Of a stretch of 64,000 nucleotides of DNA, positions 4,633 to 50,885 are shown one piece after another (the stretch's first letter is position 1; every line of letters starts with the position of its first letter). Source of the DNA: a virus (lineage: Duplodnaviria; Heunggongvirae; Uroviricota; Caudoviricetes). Position numbers and translations under genes: made by a program. A model generated the notes under the pieces. It ran no database searches and had not been told where the DNA came from. It saw only the letters and a program-made list of their open reading frames with translations. Where the stretch lies: positions 297,446 through 361,445 of the IMG/VR virus record IMGVR_UViG_3300028833_000001. One strand, given 5' to 3'.

Positions 4633-6672
4633 ATGTCATACGTAAAACAATTTAGAGCAAAAGCAAAAGATACTGGCGCAGATGTAATTCTTGATATTTA
4701 TGCTTCATCAGCAGATACATCTATAAGCGCAGTAACTTCTTTAAATACAGAAGCTATTGGTAATGTTGAAAAATACTCAGAATATGATGGTGAGAAATAT
4801 CATGAAGGTTTGACATTTGTCAATGGAGCACAAAGAGGTGTGATAGAGCTAAATGATAAGGGTAATTTGGCTGTGGAATCGTTATCAAAGCATCTTAACC
4901 TTGAATCAGCAAAGGGTGTGCAAATTAAACCAACAACAAACATAATATTAGACTCAACAAGAAGAATTGTTTCAAATAAGGGTAACGAAATTCAAGTAGA
5001 AGCAAAGTTTGATGATTATGGAAAAGTAACTGGTTTTGACGGCTCTGATGAACCTTGGGCGGAATTAAAAATAAACTCAAGAAATCTTGATTTACGCTGT
5101 CACGACCACGGTGGAATTGCATTGCAAATTGCTGGGCACGATGGAAGCGGTTTTGAAAATAAAATAAAATTTGAAAGCGATAGAACAACGCAAATCGGTG
5201 CGACAAAACATTACAGTGGAGAAGGCGGAAAAGGCCTTGAATTTGGAACCTTTAATAATGAACATGCATCTCTTTTCTGTGGTGATTATAGATTTAAGGG
5301 GGACGCTAATGTATATGGAGTAACAAGACAAACACCAACACAAACGTCAACTGGAAAAATAGATTACCCAACACAAAATGATGATTTTAAGGATGTTATA
5401 GACCCAACAAAGGCTGCTACTTGGAATGAAATTATAGATGCAGCTAAAAAATGTGCAAATCTTGATGAAACTGTTAGGGCTGAAGTTGCAAAAGCGGCTT
5501 TGAGTGGCGAAATAGACACTAGTATATTCGTTACTAAGAGCGATGTTAACGATATTGTAGCGTCCGCAATAAGCGAAGCACATATTGATTTAACTGGGCT
5601 AGCAACAGAAGAGTGGGTTCTTGACCAAAATTATATTGACGCTTTACCAGATGGTGTTCAATATATTAAAATGGGTAAGAGCAAAGGCAATTTCGCCGTT
5701 GATGTTACTGGCAAATATACTTGGGAGTTAACAAGTCCTAAATCAGCAACGACAGTTGATGAATATGATGATGTACACGCAAAAGGTGATAGGGTTATAA
5801 ATTACACAAATGAAGCGTTTTATACCGACCCAAATAAGGTGTACTACAAAGCTGGAATGGAGACCAAACTAGCTGATAACGTTACTGTTGTACCAGCAGA
5901 TACAATTGTTTACAACCAAGCATGTAATTTAACATTTGATGTTCCTGAAGGTGCATATCAATATTTCCCATGCACAAGTGCAGATACATCATTTTATGAG
6001 GACCCAACTAAATTTGCTTATAAATGCCTAATTAAGGACTCTTTAGATTTTGAAGGAAATCCAAGGCCGAAAAAATATATGGTTGATGGTGCTGGCCTTT
6101 CTGAATCAGCAATTACATATTATAACAGTAAAGCAACAGTTTATGATGAAGATGGTGTTACCGTTTTAGTTCCTGGCGAATGGGAACGTGTTGATGTTTG
6201 GAAAAAATCGACATTGTGGTCACAAAACGAAATCAACATTAACCTTGAAACAGATAGTAAAATAAAATTTGCTGGAAAGAAAATAGAAACTGTATGGACC
6301 TATGATGATGTAGACCATAAAATGGATGATATTTTACTTTCAACCAATACATTATCTACAGATGCAAATGAAGTTGTGTTTGAACAAAAGATTTCTAAAA
6401 ACGGTGATAGAGAAGGCCAAGATAGTGAAATAGTGTATTCATTTGGAAATAATGTTGCTGACACTGAAAAGGTTCCAGATTTTGAAGCGTTTAAGGCAAA
6501 TTACAACGGAAAGCATACACCAAAAACAGATGAAGAACTACAATCAATGTATGATGCTTTCTTAGCTGAAGGTCAATCGTTTGAAATTAGGGTAAAAGTA
6601 AGTGAACTTCTTGGATTGGTTTCCAGGGTTGCTGAACTTGAAGCAAGGTTGAATGCATTAGAAAATAATTAA
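4633..6672 (+). CDS. Putative tail fiber/spike protein
   Basis: 679 aa, beta-rich, 'DLTGLATEEWV' fiber motif, C-terminal coiled coil RVAELEARLNALE. Confidence 0.5.
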   Translation: MSYVKQFRAKAKDTGADVILDIYASSADTSISAVTSLNTEAIGNVEKYSEYDGEKYHEGLTFVNGAQRGVIELNDKGNLAVESLSKHLNLESAKGVQIKPTTNIILDSTRRIVSNKGNEIQVEAKFDDYGKVTGFDGSDEPWAELKINSRNLDLRCHDHGGIALQIAGHDGSGFENKIKFESDRTTQIGATKHYSGEGGKGLEFGTFNNEHASLFCGDYRFKGDANVYGVTRQTPTQTSTGKIDYPTQNDDFKDVIDPTKAATWNEIIDAAKKCANLDETVRAEVAKAALSGEIDTSIFVTKSDVNDIVASAISEAHIDLTGLATEEWVLDQNYIDALPDGVQYIKMGKSKGNFAVDVTGKYTWELTSPKSATTVDEYDDVHAKGDRVINYTNEAFYTDPNKVYYKAGMETKLADNVTVVPADTIVYNQACNLTFDVPEGAYQYFPCTSADTSFYEDPTKFAYKCLIKDSLDFEGNPRPKKYMVDGAGLSESAITYYNSKATVYDEDGVTVLVPGEWERVDVWKKSTLWSQNEININLETDSKIKFAGKKIETVWTYDDVDHKMDDILLSTNTLSTDANEVVFEQKISKNGDREGQDSEIVYSFGNNVADTEKVPDFEAFKANYNGKHTPKTDEELQSMYDAFLAEGQSFEIRVKVSELLGLVSRVAELEARLNALENN

Positions 6673-6686
6673 TATATTGTTTATAA

Positions 6687-6866
6687 ATGATAATTCACGG
6701 TAAACAAGAAATAATTGACTTATATCATGGTGCACTTCAATTAATAGAAGTGTACCATGGTAAATTATTGATTTATAAGTTAAAAAAGGAAATAGATTCA
6801 TGTTTTGGTAATGGGTATTGGATTAACAATTTACCGTGGTTAAATACAGATGGGTGGAAAAATTAA
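6687..6866 (+). CDS. Small Trp-rich phage protein (59 aa; not in ORF track)
   Basis: MIIHGKQ...SCFGNGYWINNLPWLNTDGWKN fills the gap between two genes. Confidence 0.7.
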   Translation: MIIHGKQEIIDLYHGALQLIEVYHGKLLIYKLKKEIDSCFGNGYWINNLPWLNTDGWKN

Positions 6867-6904
6867 ATTTTATTAATAACAAACAATATTTTCATTAAGG
6901 AAGA

Positions 6905-9900
6905 ATGGCAAAAACGTATAACGGAAATATTACAAAGCATACTGATTGGGGCGGGGATGCCTCAACAAGCGGATTACCAGTAAGCGGAAAAATCGTACAG
7001 CAATTTATAAAAGATGAACTTGATAGCAAGATTGGCGCTTTCTACAAACCAGAAGGCAGCACAACAATATATTCGTTTCCAGACGATGAAACTAAAGAAG
7101 CTTATATTCTAACTGGAGATGAATCACTGATTATTGATAGTTTTGAAACAGTGTCAAAATATAATGTTGTCATCAATCAAGAAGGCCTTGATTTGTCGCA
7201 TAGTGTTTTAGCTGGTTCTACTGGAAATACGGTTGAATTTTCTTTTAAGATAGTTGACGATAACAACATGAGTTCTGACGCGTCAGCTAAAATTGAGTTT
7301 TCTATTACTGGGTCTGGTATTAATAATAAATTCACGACAGAAGTTGCTGTTGCGGCTGGAGAATGGACCGTTGTACGGGAAAATATAGATAAATATTTGA
7401 GAACTGGGGCAAATAGTGTGTCAATTAAGATTGTAGGTTTGACAACGTTTACAACCACACAATTTATTATGACATATAATTTGTTTGATTTAACTTTTAT
7501 CCCTAATTTTGAATATCAGACAGTCAAAACTGGTAACACAATTTCTGTTCCTTATATTATTGCTTGTAGTGATACAAAATACCTGGAATTTTATATTGAT
7601 GGAGAACAAGTTCATAGTTCAGAATCTGAAACAATCACAGATATTAGAAAAGATGGGACTGCGACTTTGAATATATCTAATTTGTCGATAGGCCAACATT
7701 CATTGCAGGTTAGAGCGTATGTACGTTCAGGAGACGGAACGGTTTTTTATACACCGATACATTTTTATACGTTTGCAAAATATGGCGAAACATCCCCGTC
7801 GTTTTTGTTTTATAAAGAATTACCAAATGACAATGCTATTGTTTTAAATAATGAGGTTTTAACCATTACTGGAAACCAGTTTGAAGAAATATCGTTCGAT
7901 TGGTCTTTATATGATTATCTCGAAAGAAAAACCACTGTTTATTTTGAATTTAATGGTCTTGTAATCGGTAATACTGTTGTTTTGTCAAATGGTGTGCTAA
8001 ATTCATTTTCATATAGGCCTATGGATTTCGGTACCAATTTGCCTTTGCGTGTATATGCATATAATGAAAATGATGCGTTACTATTCGATTATTTGATTCA
8101 TGTCAACGTAATTGAAGCCGTTGGCGGTATTAAGGAAACTAAAGATGGTTTGCTATTAAAATTACAAGCTATAGGAAGAAGAAACACTGATTTGGATAAA
8201 GATGTTTGGTCTTGTGTTGGCAGCGATGGGCAAACATATAAGGCGACATTTAATGGTTTTGCGTGGAATTCACAACAGGGATGGAATGAAGAACACGAGG
8301 CTCTTGTAGTGTCAAACGGGGCCACTGTTGATTTTAATATCCAGCCAATGATATCTGACTGGGCAATTAACGGCGGAACATTTGAAATTGATTTAGAAAC
8401 TTTCGATATTGATGATGATAATGCAGTAATTTGCGAATGCGCTGATGAAGTTAACGCATCAATGTTCAGAATTACAGCAACAAAAGCTGAAATATCCACA
8501 AACCAAGGGGTTTCAATTAATACGAGATATAAAGATAATGAAAAATTAAAAATATCCTTTATATGTAATAGGTCTGGAAATTTCGATGACGGAAATCTGT
8601 TATACATAATGGTTAATGGGGTGTTGGAACGTGCAGCATTATATCTTGATAGCGACAGTGTAAGGTCGTTGGGTTATTTAAAAATTGGCGACCCAACTGG
8701 AAACAGTAAAGTTAGAGTTAAATCGATAAGAGTATACAATAGAGCAATTTCAATTGATGAAGCATTTAACAATTATGTTGTTGATTCTCCTAATGTTCAA
8801 GAGATTTACGATAAAAATGACGTTTTAGGCGCTGGAACAACTGAAGTTGGTTTTGATGAGGTAGCTAATAAAATTCCAGTAATGATTTTTACTGGCAATA
8901 TGGATGATTTAAGGACTAATGGGCAAGATAAGGAGTGGAGGTATTTTGATGTTGAATATGTTAACAGACAAACACCAGAATTAAATTTTGTTTCATTTAA
9001 CTGTAGACTAAAATTACAAGGTACATCGTCTTTAGGCTATCCTCGTAAAAACTTTAAATTAAGCACTAAAGAGTCTGATTTTACACAGGAAATGTATGAG
9101 GCTTCAAATTACGAACTTGACCCTGATAGTACTATAGGTAATAAAATGCTTCGTAATAAGAGGACACATGAATTGATTGATTTTGATGATTTTAAGAATG
9201 GTGGAACATTACACAATAGCTATTGTTTTACACTAGATTCAGATGGAAAGGCACTTAAAAAAGGTAAATATAAATTTAAAAAGGGTGCTCATAAAGCAAA
9301 TAAATGGACATTGAAGGCCGATTTTATGGAATCTTCATGCTCACACAATGTCGGAGCTGGTAGAAGTTGGAACGATATCTTTGAAAATACAGAACTATTA
9401 GCCAATGGAGATGCTTCTTACACTAATCACACATATAGAGATGAGGCATTGGTAAGCAATAGCCCATATTTGAATTACACTAGACAAGACGGTGTTCATT
9501 GTTTTATTGAGAACAACACACAAGCTATTAAAGACCAAAAAAAATATGTTTGTAGGACAGATGCCCAAAAGATTTGTATTGCAAATTTGAGCAATGGAGT
9601 TGATGATATTAGAACAGCAATCGATGGATTTCCTATGGTTTGTTTTTACAGAACATCACATGCAGCAAACGATTTGGTTTTCATGGGCCAATATAATTTC
9701 ATTGACGACAAGGGTTCTTATGAGGTGTTTGGATTTGAAGACATTGAAGACCCAGATGATGATAGTACTATGATTTATGATGCCGATAAAGTTGAATGCT
9801 GGGAAGGGTTAAAAAACACTAATCCAATTTCATTATTCAAGGTGTCAGACACATTTTACGATACTGTTGATTTGGGTGACGGTAAAACCATATATAAATG

Positions 9901-39472: not shown

Positions 39473-41092
39473 ATGATAAAAATTATTGTTGCAGTAGGTA
39501 ATTATATCCCAGAAAAGGGGTTTCCAATTGGAAAAAACGGTGGCTTGGCCTGGAATTTTCCAGAAGACCTTAAATGGTTCAGAAAAACAACTGAACACAA
39601 TATAGTTGTAATGGGCAGAAACACGTATAAATCATTCGGAGGTAAGCCATTACAGAATAGAGACAATTATATAGTTTCAAATTCAATGACCGAAATCCCA
39701 GAAGGATTTTGCGGGATTTTGCACAGCATTGATGAAATTGTTGACTTATCTAAAAACCAAATAGGAGACGTGTATATTATTGGTGGCGCAGAGTTATACA
39801 GGTCAGTTCTTGACGCTGATATTGTTGATGAAGTTTTAAACGACTTTATTGATGTTGAAGTTCCAGATGCAGACACATTTTTCCAGCCTTTGGATTTGAA
39901 TAAGTGGAAAATTGATGAAGAGGGTATAAGATTAAGCGATAAATGCACTGTCAATACATTTAAACATGCAAAATTTTTTAATGATGTTGATGAACAATAT
40001 TTGAATTTGGTGCAAGATGTTATAGTTAATGGTGAATTGAAAGAAACACGGGCTGGAATGACAAGGTCTGTTTTTGGAAAGCAACTTCGTTTCAACCTTA
40101 AAAATGGTTTGCCATTGCTAACAACAAAAAAAGTTTACACAAACGGTATCATTCATGAACTTATTTGGTTCCTTAAAGGCGATACGAATATTAAATATCT
40201 TGTTGACAATAATGTGCATATATGGGATGATGACGCATACAGATATTATCTTGAGCTTGTTGAAAAAAACAACGAAGTCTTTAAATGTGATGACACACCA
40301 TTGTTGAATGCTCATTACTTTGAGCCTATCACAAAGGAAGAGTTCTTGAAAGCTGTCATTGAAGAAAAAGACTGTTGGTTATACCTGGATAGATTGGCTG
40401 GTTTTATGTCATACTATCCAAACAACTATTATATTCATTATAAATTTGGCGACCTTGGTCCTGTTTATGGTGAACAATGGAGAAACTGGTATGGCGTTGA
40501 CCAAATAAAGACAGTTATTGAAACATTAAGAACAAATCCAGATGACAGAAGAATGATTGTCTCTGCTTGGAATGTTAAAGAATTGGATAAAATGGCTCTT
40601 CCTCCTTGTCATTACTCATTTCAATTTTATACAAAAAAAATGGATATTGTAGAAAGAATGAATTGGGCCTTAGAACATAATTTAAATTGTTGGGATGAAA
40701 AATCTTTGGATGACAATAATGTACCTTCACGGAAATTAAGTTGCCTCTGGAATCAACGTAGTGTAGATTCAATATGCGGATTGCCGTTCAATATAGCATC
40801 ATATGCAATTCTTACTTATATGATTGCACAATGCTGTAATATGAAACCAGATGAATTGATATTTAATGGTGGAGACGTTCATGTATATGAAAACCATATA
40901 GAAGCATTTACAGAACAATTATACAGAAATCCACATAAATATGCATTACCACAATTGGAGCTTAATCCAAACGTAAAAGAAATTGATGATTTTAGGGCAT
41001 ATGATATTAAAATAGTTGGATATCAATCATACCCAGCGATAAAATATCAATTAAATGTAGGCCTAAATAATAACAATGGCGAAGCTAAATAA
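39473..41092 (+). CDS. thyA: Bifunctional dihydrofolate reductase-thymidylate synthase
   Basis: DHFR: IGKNGGLAW..EDLKWF, VMGRNT, IIGGAELY, ADTFF. TS: PLLTTKK, LGPVYG.QWR, MALPPCH, QRSVD, PFNIASY. Confidence 0.95.
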   Translation: MIKIIVAVGNYIPEKGFPIGKNGGLAWNFPEDLKWFRKTTEHNIVVMGRNTYKSFGGKPLQNRDNYIVSNSMTEIPEGFCGILHSIDEIVDLSKNQIGDVYIIGGAELYRSVLDADIVDEVLNDFIDVEVPDADTFFQPLDLNKWKIDEEGIRLSDKCTVNTFKHAKFFNDVDEQYLNLVQDVIVNGELKETRAGMTRSVFGKQLRFNLKNGLPLLTTKKVYTNGIIHELIWFLKGDTNIKYLVDNNVHIWDDDAYRYYLELVEKNNEVFKCDDTPLLNAHYFEPITKEEFLKAVIEEKDCWLYLDRLAGFMSYYPNNYYIHYKFGDLGPVYGEQWRNWYGVDQIKTVIETLRTNPDDRRMIVSAWNVKELDKMALPPCHYSFQFYTKKMDIVERMNWALEHNLNCWDEKSLDDNNVPSRKLSCLWNQRSVDSICGLPFNIASYAILTYMIAQCCNMKPDELIFNGGDVHVYENHIEAFTEQLYRNPHKYALPQLELNPNVKEIDDFRAYDIKIVGYQSYPAIKYQLNVGLNNNNGEAK

Positions 41093-41367: not shown

Positions 41368-41988
41368 ATGGAAAAATTATTTTACAAATGGCTTAGTAGC
41401 AGTAAGTATTTGAAGTTTCATCAAGAAATAAAAAACGCTTTACGCGTTATTAATGAATATAAACTTTATGAATCGCCAAAATTCTTTTCTGAAAATATTC
41501 AATTTGATAAAAACAATGAAACCTGTCTGATTGATTCTTCAAGTGAAAGTATTACTATTTGTAAAACTGTTGTTGAGTCTAAACAATCATATAACATATT
41601 TATCGGCAACATTCAAATTAGAGTTGAAGAAAATAATATTAATAAAGAACAGGTATATAGTATCCATATTAAAGAAAATAATGGGTTAAACTGGGAAATT
41701 AAAAGAAATGACGAAGATTTGGATTATTGGGACTATTCACACCCGACAAACAAAACACTTAGAATTTTTGTTTGGTATGATGTACCAGTGTTAAACATCG
41801 CTCGTTCTGTTGGAGAAGTTTATGAAGCTGGAAACTGGAATAAGTATGTGTGCAAAACAATCGACTTTTTTACTACTGAAATTGATAAATGCACAGACTC
41901 ATCAAGTTTCAACACAATGTATGAAGAATCGGATTGGGAAAATTTCAAAAATTGGTTTAAAAATTTGTTCAATAAAAAACAAATGTAA
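41368..41988 (+). CDS. Hypothetical protein
   Basis: 206-aa ORF. Confidence 0.65.
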   Translation: MEKLFYKWLSSSKYLKFHQEIKNALRVINEYKLYESPKFFSENIQFDKNNETCLIDSSSESITICKTVVESKQSYNIFIGNIQIRVEENNINKEQVYSIHIKENNGLNWEIKRNDEDLDYWDYSHPTNKTLRIFVWYDVPVLNIARSVGEVYEAGNWNKYVCKTIDFFTTEIDKCTDSSSFNTMYEESDWENFKNWFKNLFNKKQM

Positions 41989-42589: not shown

Positions 42590-43036
42590 AAAGTGATTGT
42601 GAGAATGATAGCAAAACAACTATCATGCATAGGCGAGAAATCCCTATGTAGAATCTCCTAAATTCGGTAGAATCCTTAAAGGCGTTAGCCTTCGTAAGAG
42701 AGAAAATATGTAACCTCACTAAACAATAATGTGGAAGGACTAACCGAGCGAAAATGTAATGCGGAATTTCAATAAGTTAGGAAGATATTACATAATCGTG
42801 TAGAGGCCAAACGGGAGATACCTAAGTTGGAATTTGTATAATTGAGGGATAGCGCAAGCAAGTATGTTTTCTTTTAACAGTTAACAGAACAATCAAATTA
42901 TACATCTTGCAAGAATTCCAATATGGTAAGATGGTCCAGGCCACAACAACACTACAAGCAGTGTCGAAACCAGACATAAGTACTGTTGTAACAAAGTGTT
43001 GGCTATGATAACATAGTGTGGCATCACAATTACTTT
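42590..43036 (+). ncRNA. Group I intron-like structured RNA closed by a 13-bp terminal helix
   Basis: P3 ATCTCCT/GGGAGAT, P4 TTCGGT/ACCGAG, P7 GAGGCCA/TGGTCC, P8, P9. Ends AAAGTGATTGTGA/TCACAATTACTTT. Confidence 0.75.
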
Positions 43037-44623: not shown

Positions 44624-44769
44624 GCTCCTATAGTTCAATGGACAGAACAGAAGTTTCCTATACAAGAGTAAACTTGTTTAAATCATTTCTATGTGAAATT
44701 GGTTTTATTGGGTTCGAGTCCCACACATAGAACAAACTTCAAATCTTGGTTCGAATCCAAGTAGGAGTA
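44624..44769 (+). tRNA. tRNA-Arg(CCT) interrupted by a 74-nt insertion (44660-44733)
   Basis: Removing the insert gives GAAGT-TTCCTAA-ACTTC with normal D, T and acceptor arms. Confidence 0.85.
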
Positions 44770-44892: not shown

Positions 44893-45030
44893 AAGCGCAA
44901 ACTGAAGGGGAATTGGTAAACCCTCGCCCCTAGATAACATCAGAGCAGGGAGGTTTGGTGAGGCAACCGTAAAAGTAATCCAGCATGTGTAGCAAGATGG
45001 AAGTTCTGGTTCGAGTCCAGATGAGCGCTT
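44893..45030 (+). ncRNA. tRNA-shell RNA (D and T arms, ~80-nt non-tRNA middle)
   Basis: AAGCGC/GCGCTT, GGG-GAATTGGTAAA-CCC, TCTGG-TTCGAGT-CCAGA. Confidence 0.55.
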
Positions 45031-45702: not shown

Positions 45703-45817
45703 GTGTTGATGGCGCAATGGTAGACGCACACATGCACGTGGTTCGCGGTTCGAGTCCGCAAGTAGTTGGGCACAACGAAAAAATGGTAGAATGATGGTTC
45801 GAATCCATCTCAACACA
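45703..45817 (+). ncRNA. tRNA-shell RNA with a second internal T-loop hairpin
   Basis: GTGTTGA/TCAACAC, D arm, internal GCGG-TTCGAGT-CCGC, terminal GATGG-TTCGAAT-CCATC. Confidence 0.6.
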
Positions 45818-45824
45818 CAATAAA

Positions 45825-46003
45825 TCCCCTATTAGTTCAATTGGCAGAACGTAGTTATATCAATTCTTTGACGAAAGAATAAATTGTATAACTAAGGTTG
45901 TAATTATTTTGTGAAGTAGTGACTTGTTGACAATGGGTGCGCAACAGAATCAAAGATTAGAGCTGTGAATCATTTTAACGGGGTTCGAATCCAACATAGG
46001 GGA
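45825..46003 (+). ncRNA. tRNA-shell RNA with extended anticodon arm and ~80-nt insert before the T loop
   Basis: TCCCCTAT/ATAGGGGA, GTTC-AATTGGCA-GAAC, TAGTTATA/TATAACTA, GG-TTCGAAT-CC. Confidence 0.55.
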
Positions 46004-46016
46004 CAGGTATAAGTAT

Positions 46017-46086
46017 CGGGATGTAGTTTAATGTTAAAATAATTGTGCTTAGGACAGTGATATAGGTGCGAATCCTATCATCTCGG
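46017..46086 (+). pseudogene. Degenerate duplicate of the adjacent interrupted tRNA-Pro
   Basis: Shares its 5' end, T arm and trailer CAAATATTTCATAT with 46120-46252. Lacks G18G19, U33 and the TTC T-loop. Confidence 0.65.
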
Positions 46087-46119
46087 CAAATATTTCATAT
46101 AGTATAAACATAATAGCAT

Positions 46120-46252
46120 CGGGATGTAGTTTAATTTGGTAAAATGCGTTAATTTTTTCGTGTTTTGTTCTTTAAAAACACAGACAGCAACTTTTCTTTA
46201 AAATTATTGTTTTGGGGAAACCGTGTTATAGGTTCGAATCCTATCATCCCGA
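46120..46252 (+). tRNA. tRNA-Pro(GGG) interrupted at 28/29 by a 60-nt insertion (46149-46208)
   Basis: Removing the insert gives CGGTT-TTGGGGA-AACCG. C1-G72 and A73 give Pro identity. Confidence 0.75.
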
Positions 46253-46562: not shown

Positions 46563-46743
46563 TGCGGGATGGAGCAGAGGTCAGCTCGTCAGGCTCAATA
46601 CAGAGTGGTTTTCTGAAAAAAACTGTTGATGCCAATTGTTCAAGAGAAGAGCCGATACACAATCAAATTGTGTGTCGAGGCTGGTTCGAGTCCAGCTGGC
46701 GTCGCTAACCTGAAGGTCGGGGGTTCGAATCCCTCTCCCGCTA
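46563..46743 (+). tRNA. Initiator tRNA-fMet(CAT) interrupted inside the anticodon by a 108-nt insertion (46598-46705)
   Basis: 1:72 mismatch and A11-U24. Removing the insert gives TCAGG-CTCATAA-CCTGA. Confidence 0.88.
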
Positions 46744-47511: not shown

Positions 47512-47581
47512 AGGATACATACAGCAAACCTTTTTTTTAAGCATCAAACTTTTAATTTGAAAACGCTAAGAAAGTATCCTG
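47512..47581 (+). ncRNA. Free-standing ACAGCAA module presenting a Lys(TTT)-like anticodon stem-loop
   Basis: AGGATAC/GTATCCT, ACAGCAA at 47521, TCAAA-CTTTTAA-TTTGA. Confidence 0.65.
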
Positions 47582-47679: not shown

Positions 47680-48222
47680 ATGGAACAAGACGAATTGAAT
47701 CACAACAGGCGTGTTTTCGCAAATATTAACAAATTAGATATTGAAGATGTCCATCCAATCCCAAAGGTCGAATTAGTTGTTGGGAAAACATATAAAGGCA
47801 ATTGTAGGAATTCAGATAATGCGGTTTGGGATGGAAAAGTATTTTGGTACGACAGGCACAAGTTTGGTAGTACATTTAGGGAAAGTATAAATCACTACGA
47901 AGATGATGATGGTTACGATGTTTTTGTCCCATTTGAAACAGATGAATCGTTTATTGTTCTTCCAGAAGATTCGGTTAAGAAACTTTCTGATAGAGATTAT
48001 TGGGGTACTATTGAGAAAATATTTATGGAAATTACCAATTTGATGACGGAAAAAGCATTTATTAATGAAGCTAAACATATGTACCCAAATATGTCAGATG
48101 AAGACATTAGAAAACAATTGAAAAACATGCTTTACGATAATTATGGAAATATTGTAAGAGGTGCTGATATGTTTGATTTTAGTGGTAAGTTAAAAGGTGA
48201 ACCAGGAACTCCTGGAAAATAA
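47680..48222 (+). CDS. Hypothetical protein within the tRNA array
   Basis: 180 aa, codon style matches the other genes. Confidence 0.7.
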   Translation: MEQDELNHNRRVFANINKLDIEDVHPIPKVELVVGKTYKGNCRNSDNAVWDGKVFWYDRHKFGSTFRESINHYEDDDGYDVFVPFETDESFIVLPEDSVKKLSDRDYWGTIEKIFMEITNLMTEKAFINEAKHMYPNMSDEDIRKQLKNMLYDNYGNIVRGADMFDFSGKLKGEPGTPGK

Positions 48223-49423: not shown

Positions 49424-49642
49424 ACAAAAGCAAACGAAACCAGTTGACCAGATGGGATAAAACGCATAGTCATCCGTGATGCCACTGCGGATTAATAAAT
49501 AGATGGCTAAGACGGAGGTAACGTTACCGTTTAAACAACTATATTTTTAATGCTGACAGAGCGGGCGTGGAAAGTTCTTGAAATGTTAATATAAAACTGC
49601 CAGAATCGCAAAATTGTACGGGTTTGCACGTGCAAAACTTTT

Positions 49643-49714
49643 GGGGAGGTAGCTCAACGGTAGAGCAACTGGCTGTTAACCAGTAGGTTGTGGGTTCGAA
49701 ACCCACCCTCCCCG
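49643..49714 (+). tRNA. tRNA-Asn(GTT)
   Basis: ACTGG-CTGTTAA-CCAGT, G73. Confidence 0.92.
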
Positions 49715-49719
49715 CGAAT

Positions 49720-50132
49720 ATACCAATTAACAGTAGGCTTGAAAGCAGCCATCTGATAATGAGTTGCGAGAGGAAGTTTGCGTGGAAGTCATGACTCCGC
49801 AAAATAACAAGGCGCATGTGAGTAACTTGGCAATAAGCATGTGAGAAACACCTCAGGAATAGCGAACGTGGAAATCCCCGATGCAAAGAAAGGAACACAG
49901 TTGAAATACTGTGCGAGGTTCCAGTAGCGTGACGGTGCATCGAAGCTATGTAGCTAAGTTTTATGTAAGCCCCAACAGTACGAGAGGAACCTGGGGTCAA
50001 TGGGTGCCATGAATTTGGTTTCTATGCCGTAAGTGAGTCGGTAAAGAACGCGAGAAGTATCAAGTGAAGACTCGCGCCCAAAAGCATAAAACAGTCCTTA
50101 GAGCATTTGGCGTGGCAGCACATAATTGGTAT
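49720..50132 (+). ncRNA. Large ornate RNA with a 23S H43/H44 mimic (GOLLD-like candidate)
   Basis: ATACCAATTA/TAATTGGTAT ends; AGTAGGCTTGAAAGCAGCCATC; GGCGTGGCAGCAC; many internal helices. Confidence 0.7.
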
Positions 50133-50135
50133 TAT

Positions 50136-50207
50136 GCGGGTATAGCACAACGGTTAGTGTGCCAGCTTGCCATGCTGGAAATGTCAGTTCGATTCTGATT
50201 ACCCGCT
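50136..50207 (+). tRNA. tRNA-Gly(GCC)
   Basis: CCAGC-TTGCCAT-GCTGG, U73. Confidence 0.93.
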
Positions 50208-50512: not shown

Positions 50513-50521
50513 ATTTTTTTT

Positions 50522-50640
50522 CGGGGAGTAGCTCAGTTGGTTAGAGCGCGTAATGTAGATTCTTGTAAAAGAATCAAACAGCAATGTTTACGAATGTCAT
50601 TTGAAGACCGTGGTCGTGGGTTCGAGTCCCACCTCCCCAG
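50522..50640 (+). tRNA. tRNA-Gln(TTG) interrupted at 28/29 by a 45-nt insertion (50551-50595)
   Basis: Removing the insert gives CGGTC-ATTTGAA-GACCG; weak 1:72 pair, G73. Confidence 0.8.
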
Positions 50641-50648
50641 CAAATTAT

Positions 50649-50803
50649 ATTTGGCTAATTTGAGGTTCAAGAAGGCCCCCGTAAGATGGACAATCGTGGG
50701 GGCAATGCTTGAGATGGATACTGTGAAGGGACAGCCATAAGTCATGAAGTACAGTTAGATGTGGGGTCTGGTGGAATGACAGACTGTGTAGGATTAACCA
50801 AAT
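50649..50803 (+). ncRNA. Unidentified ~155-nt structured RNA
   Basis: ATTTGGCTAATTT/GGATTAACCAAAT; TCAAG/CTTGA; GCCCCC/GGGGGC; GGTCTG/CAGACT. Confidence 0.55.
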
Positions 50804-50807
50804 TTAT

Positions 50808-50878
50808 TGAGCCATCGTCTAACGGCAAGACACCAGATTTTGGTTCTGGGAATCGAGGTTCGAATCCTCGTGGCTCAA
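50808..50878 (+). tRNA. tRNA-Gln(TTG)
   Basis: U1-A72; CCAGA-TTTTGGT-TCTGG. Confidence 0.93.
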
Positions 50879-50885
50879 CAAACAA

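Follow-up and report, generated by a model that had tools for sequence, protein, structure and literature searches.

A tRNA-Pro(GGG)-shaped phage RNA with a CAGCAA arm in its anticodon stem, probably a Y-RNA-like non-coding RNA

The last 64,000 nucleotides (nt) of a 361,445-bp phage record in IMG/VR (IMGVR_UViG_3300028833_000001, Caudoviricetes; hereafter G000) contain a tRNA-Pro(GGG)-shaped RNA gene, at 46120-46252, in which a 60-nt arm interrupts the anticodon stem. This stretch, corresponding to record positions 297,446 to 361,445, is called the window, and positions refer to it unless stated otherwise. At 42.4-51.3 kb, the window carries a dense tRNA array with 26 tRNAs by ARAGORN, to which Rfam adds three tRNA matches with long internal gaps (44624-44769, 46120-46252, and 50522-50640). 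The core of the arm, i.e., a 7-bp helix followed by two nucleotides, an A, and the sequence CAGCAA, recurs in a widespread family of small phage RNAs, which are associated with genes for Ro60-like proteins. We consider the element to be, probably, a handle-bearing, tRNA-shaped non-coding RNA resembling the Y RNAs, with an arm that more likely serves permanently for protein docking than represents an intron.

The Rfam tRNA model (RF00005) scores 42.1 bits across the entire element (gathering score 29; window-wide E 1.5e-5), aligning model positions 1-71 and skipping the insert; as a cloverleaf, the element thus scores above the threshold of the family. Re-reading confirmed the insert as quoted by an earlier, sequence-only reading of this DNA: a T, the stalk strand TAATTTT, TTC, the hairpin GTGTTTT/GTTCTTTA/AAAACAC, AG, ACAGCAA, the tail CTTTTCTTT, the stalk strand AAAATTA, and TT. 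That reading had placed the spacer and ACAGCAA behind the 5' strand of the hairpin, but it is the 3' strand that precedes them. The anticodon GGG is found at 46214-46216. Deletion of the insert leaves a 73-nt tRNA with the anticodon stem CGGUU/AACCG, the loop UUGGGGA, C1 paired to G72, and A73, in which ATGCG is directly followed by GTTTTGGGG. The C1:G72 pair and A73 are characteristic of bacterial tRNA-Pro. In the minimum-energy fold of the uncut RNA, the tail and the 3' strand of the stalk (46193-46204) form 12 bp with G29 to A40, which masks the anticodon. Since this pairing is not conserved in the tRNA-Gln copy discussed below, little weight was given to it. Signs of an origin from a miniature inverted-repeat transposable element or an insertion sequence were not found: the arm is single-copy in the 361-kb genome, its junctions show no duplication, and the arm in the Gln copy shares the motif only.

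The sequence-only reading had also drawn attention to a sister copy in a tRNA-Gln(UUG) body, the insert of which is laid out alike and is likewise located between positions 28 and 29. This holds: in both, the insert starts with T after GCG and ends with T before GT. The helix sequences of the two copies differ, as had been stated, and pairing is nonetheless kept. The Gln helix matches the consensus of the stand-alone RNAs, AGR.../...YCU. That two tRNAs would share this design by chance was judged unlikely, and the wider comparison agrees, as insert-type copies are present in at least 11 tRNA bodies, i.e., Pro and Gln of G000 and at least nine others from related rumen jumbo phages. Two related phages were recruited through an open reading frame (ORF) at 47680-48222 and three more via a conserved element beside the stand-alone RNA at 47512-47580. 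Furthermore, the arrays of 14 additional jumbo phages encoding a Ro60-like protein were scanned locally, which yielded 82 closed stand-alone sites and several tRNA chimeras. Among nine parsed copies, the insertion site is 28/29, 29/30, or 31/32, and the anticodon stem around the insert consists of five perfect base pairs in all nine. CAGCAA is invariant in the eight insert copies that were aligned, and 51 of 54 helix positions across these copies are paired in spite of differing sequences; pairs were counted by script instead of from the MAFFT alignment, in which the hairpins were out of structural register. The hairpin in tRNA-Pro(UGG) of G003/G005 is a clear homologue of the Gln arm of G000, despite its different site (31/32).

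A close relative, G004, carries the same Pro chimera. The arms are identical at 60 of 60 positions, and arm and tRNA parts together at 131 of 133, the two differences being located in the D loop and the variable loop of the tRNA, whereas the flanking spacers have strongly diverged. When Pro orthologues with other inserts were searched for with the pattern ATGCG-N40-70-GTTTTGGGGAAACCG, the G004 contig was the sole real match; L076 and 65 other metagenome matches were attributed to chance. The block 50516-50804, comprising the Gln chimera and a 165-nt structured spacer, is missing from the otherwise collinear G004 array and thus represents a presence/absence polymorphism of a whole chimera.

These comparisons bear on the possibility that the chimeras are dead tRNA genes, i.e., functionless pseudogenes that arose when redundant tRNA genes received, by recombination or duplication, a handle copy originating from one of the stand-alone CAGCAA RNAs. 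The absence of the Gln block from G004 is in line with such an origin, and so are the intact twins that exist for several chimeras (Gln(UUG) at 50808-50879 in G000; Asp, Pro(UGG), and Lys in G001), the three adjacent G001 copies, the arms of which are almost identical, and the HNH endonuclease ORFs located within the G000 array. However, decay is difficult to reconcile with the conservation of the Pro chimera between G000 and G004 amid diverging spacers, with anticodon stem halves that differ in sequence and yet are perfectly complementary in every parsed copy, with the recurrence of the design in distant phages (L055 and the jumbo phages G006, G009, and G014), and with the presence of the region in RNA libraries. 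We therefore regard this explanation as improbable.

Table 1. Features of the Pro chimera, its relatives, and the Ro60-like gene (window positions unless stated otherwise).
Feature	Position	Strand	Description and basis
tRNA-Pro(GGG)-shaped RNA gene with side arm	46120..46252	+	133 nt, CCA not encoded; Rfam RF00005
5' tRNA part, C1 to G28	46120..46148	+	acceptor 5' strand CGGGATG, D arm, G26, C27, G28; sequence and Rfam alignment
Insert (arm)	46149..46208	+	60 nt, between G28 and G29; sequence
Stalk 5' strand	46150..46156	+	TAATTTT, 7 bases complementary to 46200-46206; sequence
Handle helix	46160..46181	+	7 bp, GTGTTTT (46160-46166), 8-nt loop, AAAACAC (46175-46181); present in every predicted fold
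Spacer and motif	46182..46190	+	AG (46182-46183) and ACAGCAA (46184-46190), invariant core CAGCAA; sequence and comparison of insert copies
Tail	46191..46199	+	CTTTTCTTT, from motif to stalk 3' strand; sequence
Stalk 3' strand	46200..46206	+	AAAATTA; sequence
3' tRNA part, G29 to A73	46209..46252	+	G29-U31, loop UUGGGGA, AACCG, variable loop, T arm, acceptor 3' strand; sequence and Rfam alignment
Sister chimera, tRNA-Gln(UUG) body	50522..50640	+	Rfam tRNA, 43.5 bits
Gln arm	50551..50595	+	45 nt: TAATGTA, GATTCT/TGTAAA/AGAATC, AA, ACAGCAA (50578-50584), TGTTTACGAAT; sequence
Stand-alone CAGCAA RNA	47512..47580	+	stem AGGATAC/GTATCCT, AT, ACAGCAA (47521-47527), then hairpin
Other chimeras	G001		Asp-like, Pro-like, Lys(CUU), three in a row; near-identical arms
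Other chimera	G003/G005		Pro(UGG), site 31/32; hairpin GATTCTT..AAGAACC, TA, TCAGCAA
Other chimeras	L023; G006; G014		L023 Lys(UUU); G006 Lys(UUU), 28/29; G014 Ile(UAU), 29/30
Other chimeras	L055; G009		tRNA identity not parsed
Ro60-like protein	genome 8232-9836, outside window	-	534 aa, DUF7788 and vWA; profile scores

By itself, ACAGCAA is not enriched in the window (16 occurrences versus 10.5 expected). Thus, it is the structural context and not the heptamer that carries the significance, and this context is shared with RNAs that have no tRNA body. In the stand-alone RNA of the G000 array, GTATCCT closes AGGATAC 50 nt downstream, and the interior copies the anticodon arm of tRNA-Lys(UUU) in a hairpin, TCAAA CTTTTAA TTTGA, with a 5-bp stem and a 7-nt loop identical to that of the tRNA. 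Homologues are found in G001, G003/G005, and G004. Possibly, this RNA acts as a bait for Lys-specific anticodon nucleases. G001 has five stand-alone CAGCAA RNAs, the closing stems of which differ from each other yet are complementary.

In the stand-alone RNAs, the elements appear in the order AGRNNNN, NN, A, CAGCAA, cargo, NNNNYCU, and in the tRNA arms in the order NNNNYCU, loop, AGRNNNN, NN, A, CAGCAA. The tRNA arms are, therefore, circular permutations of the stand-alone RNAs, and an anticodon hairpin follows CAGCAA after 8-21 nt in both forms. We define this so far unnamed family by a helix of 6-8 bp, with a strand mostly ending in C, then 2-3 nt and a single-stranded (A)CAGCAA, in a genome with a gene for a Ro60-like DUF2828/DUF7788-vWA protein. 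The Pro arm fits this definition with AAAACAC-AG-ACAGCAA and a helix paired at seven of seven positions. When a weight matrix trained exclusively on the stand-alone CAGCAA RNAs of other phages was applied to the 287 CAGCAA sites of G000, the three sites in the tRNA array ranked first (47522), fifth (Pro), and twelfth (Gln), and all three have a perfectly paired helix in the expected register.

The orientation of the motif raises another possibility. RCAGCAA shows a strong strand bias in the arrays (4/0 in G000, 9/3 in G001, and 5/0 in G004) and many copies are located between tRNAs, as would suit not a protein handle but a signal by which the array is processed or transcribed (an RNase site or phage promoter, for example), the tRNA copies being cut into halves there. 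We deem this very unlikely. The motif is always within a closed structure with a covarying 7-bp stem and not at spacer boundaries, and it also occurs beside Ro60-like genes in phages without a nearby tRNA array, e.g., Rose5. A sigma-54-like promoter (GG-N10-GC) was discarded in particular, as its spacing fits the copies in G001 only and not those in G000.

The association with Ro60-like genes emerged from 55 IMG/VR loci with Ro60-like homologues (down to 24% identity), of which 4 kb on either side were inspected. The counts, in non-coding DNA only, were compared with those of the 59 other permutations of the hexamer, a perfect 7-mer being required for the closing stem. On the gene strand, CAGCAA was found 48 times versus a mean of 10.9 (standard deviation 5.7) for the other permutations, and 37 of these 48 sites are closed by a perfect 7-bp stem versus a mean of 2.9. 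On the opposite strand, there are 14 CAGCAA sites, two of them closed. At least one CAGCAA RNA is present in 19 of the 55 loci, and many of these RNAs are within 150 nt of the Ro60-like gene. Their closing stems covary freely, with the first pair mostly A-U, the second mostly G-C, and the last mostly C-G. Cultured phages follow the same pattern: Escherichia phage mio (Felixounavirus) has four CAGCAA RNAs in a tRNA array starting ~170 nt past a gene annotated as vWFA, Listeria phage A511 has three immediately upstream of a gene for an "RNA-binding protein," and three are found in Mycobacterium phage Rose5, within the gap that follows a gene for a "Ro-like RNA binding protein." In phage mio (MN850631.1, locus L073, 5330-5560), an annotated coding sequence on the opposite strand, mio_111 ("hypothetical protein"), overlaps two closed CAGCAA RNAs, and is probably a mis-called ORF over non-coding RNA genes.

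G000 also encodes such a protein, of 534 amino acids, in another part of the genome, and a DUF7788 ORF is found in G001. The protein scores 69.7 bits with DUF7788, 28.3 bits with VWA_2, and 25.7 bits with DUF2828, whereas the Pfam TROVE profile gives no match. An AlphaFold model based on a 36-sequence alignment (predicted local distance difference test 82; predicted template-modelling score 0.84) resembles over its full length the Ro60/TROVE rings, with as best solved matches 9kop, 2nvo, 9l5y, 1yvr, and 2i91 (probability 1.0, template-modelling score ~0.5), which include Ro60 of Thermus phage phiLo, Rsr of Deinococcus radiodurans, and Ro60 of Xenopus and man. Thus, the predicted fold is Ro60/Rsr-like. 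Of 50,697 phage records, 689 encode a homologue, with Felixounavirus, Listeria phage A511, and mycobacteriophages among them. Downstream of the gene are those for an RNA ligase (PHA02142 OB fold and PF09414), a DUF932 protein, and an AAA_33 kinase. In G000, the operon at 5,974-9,836 (loci L003 and L014) comprises the genes for the Ro60-like protein, the ligase, and the DUF932 protein, and the kinase gene comes next in a 91%-identical relative (L015). The arrangement looks like an RNA-repair cassette.

Ro60 proteins and their RNA ligands offer the closest parallel. In Y RNAs, the 5' end and the 3' end form a stem, a short motif is located near the 5' end (GNCGAA in bacteria and GGUCCGA in animals), and Ro60 reads mainly the 5' strand (Chen et al., 2014, PMC4201824; Wang et al., 2018, bioRxiv 10.1101/312249). 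In the bacterial YrlA RNAs (Rfam RF02553), the anticodon stem of a tRNA-like domain runs on into the Ro60-binding module, where GNCGAA sits just past the 5' strand of the closing stem (Chen et al., 2014; Wang et al., 2018). The majority of YrlAs look like tRNAs that have been circularly permuted, their acceptor stem being looped and a CCA end lacking (Chen et al., 2014; Wang et al., 2018). Ro60 of Thermus phage phiLo binds two Yrl RNAs, Yrl1 and Yrl2, which are encoded next to it (PMC12135203), and TROVE proteins of jumbo phages have been described as members of RNA-repair gene sets (PMC7824862).

The handle of the Pro chimera is placed like the Ro60 module of YrlA and appears to follow the same logic. 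As in the YrlA/YrlB-type RNAs that are bound by Ro60/Rsr in bacteria and phages, an L-shaped tRNA-like domain is joined via its anticodon stem to a module that, here, is predicted to bind protein, this module consists of a helix and then a short conserved single-stranded motif, several copies occur per locus, and the genome encodes a Ro60-type ring protein, often near genes for RNA ligase or repair. The topology, in contrast, is opposite. Whereas YrlA ends in the Ro60 stem, with its acceptor stem looped and without a free CCA end, the Pro chimera ends at a normal acceptor stem and it is the handle helix that is looped. Also unlike YrlA, the Pro chimera retains a complete anticodon arm with a sense anticodon, and its putative partner belongs to the DUF2828/DUF7788 branch instead of matching Pfam TROVE.

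From these parallels, a mechanism can be proposed. A genuine tRNA-Pro body carries an arm, inserted into its anticodon stem on the 5' strand, the core of which would be the recognition handle of the small-RNA family. In stand-alone members, the handle helix arises from pairing between the two ends of the molecule; in the Pro chimera, it is closed by a loop, with the ends of the RNA at the acceptor stem. The handle would most likely dock the Ro60-like ring protein of G000. The arm would be kept in the finished RNA, leaving the anticodon hairpin at the distance from CAGCAA that is seen in stand-alone RNAs, and the complex might present the tRNA, or its anticodon arm, to tRNA-directed enzymes. 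It could thereby serve as bait for host anticodon nucleases or, alternatively, as a tether or guide for the neighboring RNA-repair enzymes or a host exonuclease.

Several observations weigh against a Y-RNA-like nature of the element. The gene for the Ro60-like protein is not beside that for the Pro RNA, as the former is at 8.2-9.8 kb of the genome and the latter at 343.6 kb, a distance of ~21 kb if the ends of the record join and of ~330 kb otherwise; the link between RNA and protein rests on the gene neighborhood in other phages. The proximity expected of a YrlA-type RNA, no more than ~4 kb from Ro60 and encoded on one strand with it, applies to stand-alone members in other phages but not to the RNA in G000. 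The motif is CAGCAA beside a local hairpin, and not the GNCGAA(N)G of YrlA in a stem of 5' and 3' ends, or the GGUCCGA of animals. The YrlA model of Rfam misses the chimera and gives only two chance-level matches elsewhere in the array (21 bits versus a gathering score of 69). The helix in Pro begins with AAA/UUU and not with the commoner AGR/YCU, and the cloverleaf-plus-arm fold is weak in silico (-12.5 kcal/mol versus -33.6 kcal/mol for the best fold). Finally, deletion of the arm gives a textbook tRNA-Pro with identity elements, the junctions recur between copies, and the phage encodes enzymes that could seal exons.

The latter points would suit an intron of a new, protein-dependent type, a removable insert being what the sequence-only reading had implied. 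An endonuclease guided by the hairpin and CAGCAA would cut between CG and UAAU and between AWU and G, after which a kinase and a ligase would seal the nick in the double-stranded anticodon stem to give a decoding tRNA-Pro(GGG). Precise deletion indeed makes the anticodon arm perfect and leaves a tRNA that has C1:G72, A73, G35, G36, and G37, and the anticodon arm is likewise restored in the nine parsed copies. Exon 1 ends with G, the insert often starts with UAAU, and exon 2 starts with G, so that CG-UAAU...AWU-G is read across many copies; the Rnl-type ligase and AAA_33 kinase are phage-encoded, and the G000 array has no uninterrupted copy of tRNA-Pro(GGG). Nevertheless, we consider splicing unlikely. 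The insertion site is variable, stand-alone RNAs without exons begin with the identical motif, and the set of ligase, kinase, and Ro60 is a usual RNA-repair neighborhood (PMC7824862). At position 33, two of the G001 chimeras carry A in place of U, which speaks against a role in decoding. EndA (PF01974, with positive control genomes), RtcB, and reverse transcriptase were not found in the phage, a bulge-helix-bulge was not seen by inspection, and Rfam gave no ribozyme or group I match with E up to 1. RNA data point in the same direction, although weakly: contigs from sheep-gut metatranscriptomes cover the Pro and Gln chimeras in unspliced form and without differences, but rare forms are dropped from contigs. 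None of the 15 listed of 160 joints in Logan contigs is at 46148/46209 or 50550/50596, and the uninterrupted or spliced junction AAAATGCGGTTTTGGGGAAACCG has no match in metagenome contigs of the Joint Genome Institute.

Known introns differ from the insert in further respects. Like those of archaeal and eukaryal tRNAs, it is short, lies within or close to the anticodon arm, and restores the tRNA when removed, and archaea are known to have introns at non-canonical anticodon-stem positions (PMC4090602). Those introns depend on a bulge-helix-bulge and EndA/Sen, whereas here the phage is of bacterial type and the motif is common to RNAs that are not introns; an archaeal-type intron was rejected, as the junctions are at the base of the stalk helix with linkers of 1 and 2 nt, which does not fit a bulge-helix-bulge. 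Group I introns in bacterial and phage tRNAs are ~200 nt or longer, have a catalytic core (P3-P9), and are located in the anticodon loop. The Pro insert, like these, interrupts a tRNA gene, but it is only 60 nt long and in the stem, and neither Rfam introns nor known self-cleaving ribozymes or other Rfam families match at the gathering score or at E up to 1. In engineered tRNA scaffolds, structured RNA cargo is carried on the anticodon stem, the tRNA body providing folding and stability; there the cargo replaces the anticodon loop, whereas the Pro chimera retains this loop, its arm branching off the 5' strand.

Other candidate explanations for the motif were also dismissed. Retron-like branching at AGC would need a reverse transcriptase, and a GCAA tetraloop hairpin forms in the Gln copy only. 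For a trans-acting guide complementary to ACAGCAA, no TTGCTGT is present on the + strand of the G000 array. Excision by RNase P and RNase Z fits inserts of another class, in the anticodon loop (see below), while those of the CAGCAA class are without a minihelix.

Returning to the Y-RNA-like reading, it might, tentatively, be extended to a whole ribonucleoprotein system that ranges from enterobacterial Felixounaviruses to rumen jumbo phages and is as yet undescribed: no publication was found that names DUF2828 together with Ro60 or mentions any CAGCAA RNA, or that describes a tRNA-shaped RNA with a CAGCAA arm as a Y-like RNA. In such a system, the helix and CAGCAA would dock a Ro60-like ring to complete tRNAs, or to anticodon arms alone, the specificity of which is chosen (Pro GGG, Gln UUG, and Lys UUU in G000). 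These would serve as baits for anticodon nucleases of the host, or would guide the adjacent ligase and kinase to tRNAs that have been cleaved. This would amount to a programmable counter-defense with the anticodon as exchangeable cargo. If the Y-RNA-like reading of the element is correct, some phage "tRNA genes with introns" or "tRNA pseudogenes" would represent a class of tRNA-shaped Y RNAs, and the RNA partners of an uncharacterised phage protein that is very common could be recognised by a simple sequence rule, the CAGCAA handle. The ligands of Ro60-like proteins, their pairing with RNA ligases and tRNA arrays, and counter-defense by anticodon arms would all be testable in cultured phages, and annotations such as that of the phage mio coding sequence would be corrected.

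As to the genomic setting, G000 DNA is contained almost in full in sheep-gut metagenomes and metatranscriptomes. Close cultured relatives were not found by DNA in the phage collection, and no relatives of the ORF at 41368-41988 were found in IMG/VR. At 39473-41092, the window encodes a fused dihydrofolate reductase-thymidylate synthase of 539 amino acids; such fusions typically occur in protists and plants and are unusual for phages. In the RNA libraries, contigs reach an extreme depth at 42604-42907 (16,462 in X3 and 9,634 in X21, versus ~50-220 in a DNA run), a segment without an Rfam match, and a high depth (~1,900-2,300 in X3) at 49596-50203, between tRNA-Asn and tRNA-Gly.

The array harbors further unusual tRNA-like elements. 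A paralogue of the Pro chimera body without an arm, at 46017-46087, has been labeled a UUA "suppressor" by ARAGORN; with the loop GCTTAGG and a C at position 33, it is probably another non-decoding tRNA-like RNA. It is part of a block, 45841-46108, that is absent from G004. At 45703-45817, 45825-46003, and 44893-45030, tRNA-like shells keep the acceptor, D, and T arms, with other structures of 55-130 nt in place of the anticodon region. A second T-arm-like hairpin is present in one of these shells, and 45703-45817 is conserved in G004.

A second class of tRNA inserts, of 74-108 nt, is located in the anticodon loop. Examples are at 46563-46743 and 44624-44769 in the window, at L006 2785-2925 (tRNA-Thr of G001), and on the - strand of L009 (reverse complement ~6385-6540; tRNA-Tyr of G004), the host tRNAs being fMet-like (CAU), Arg(CCU), Thr(UGU), and Tyr(GUA). 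These inserts always start with NUACA(G/A/U) and end with a minihelix of acceptor plus T arm, followed by N-C. The class is unrelated to the CAGCAA arm, with the exception of the Tyr insert of G004, in which ACAGCAA forms the start of the minihelix.

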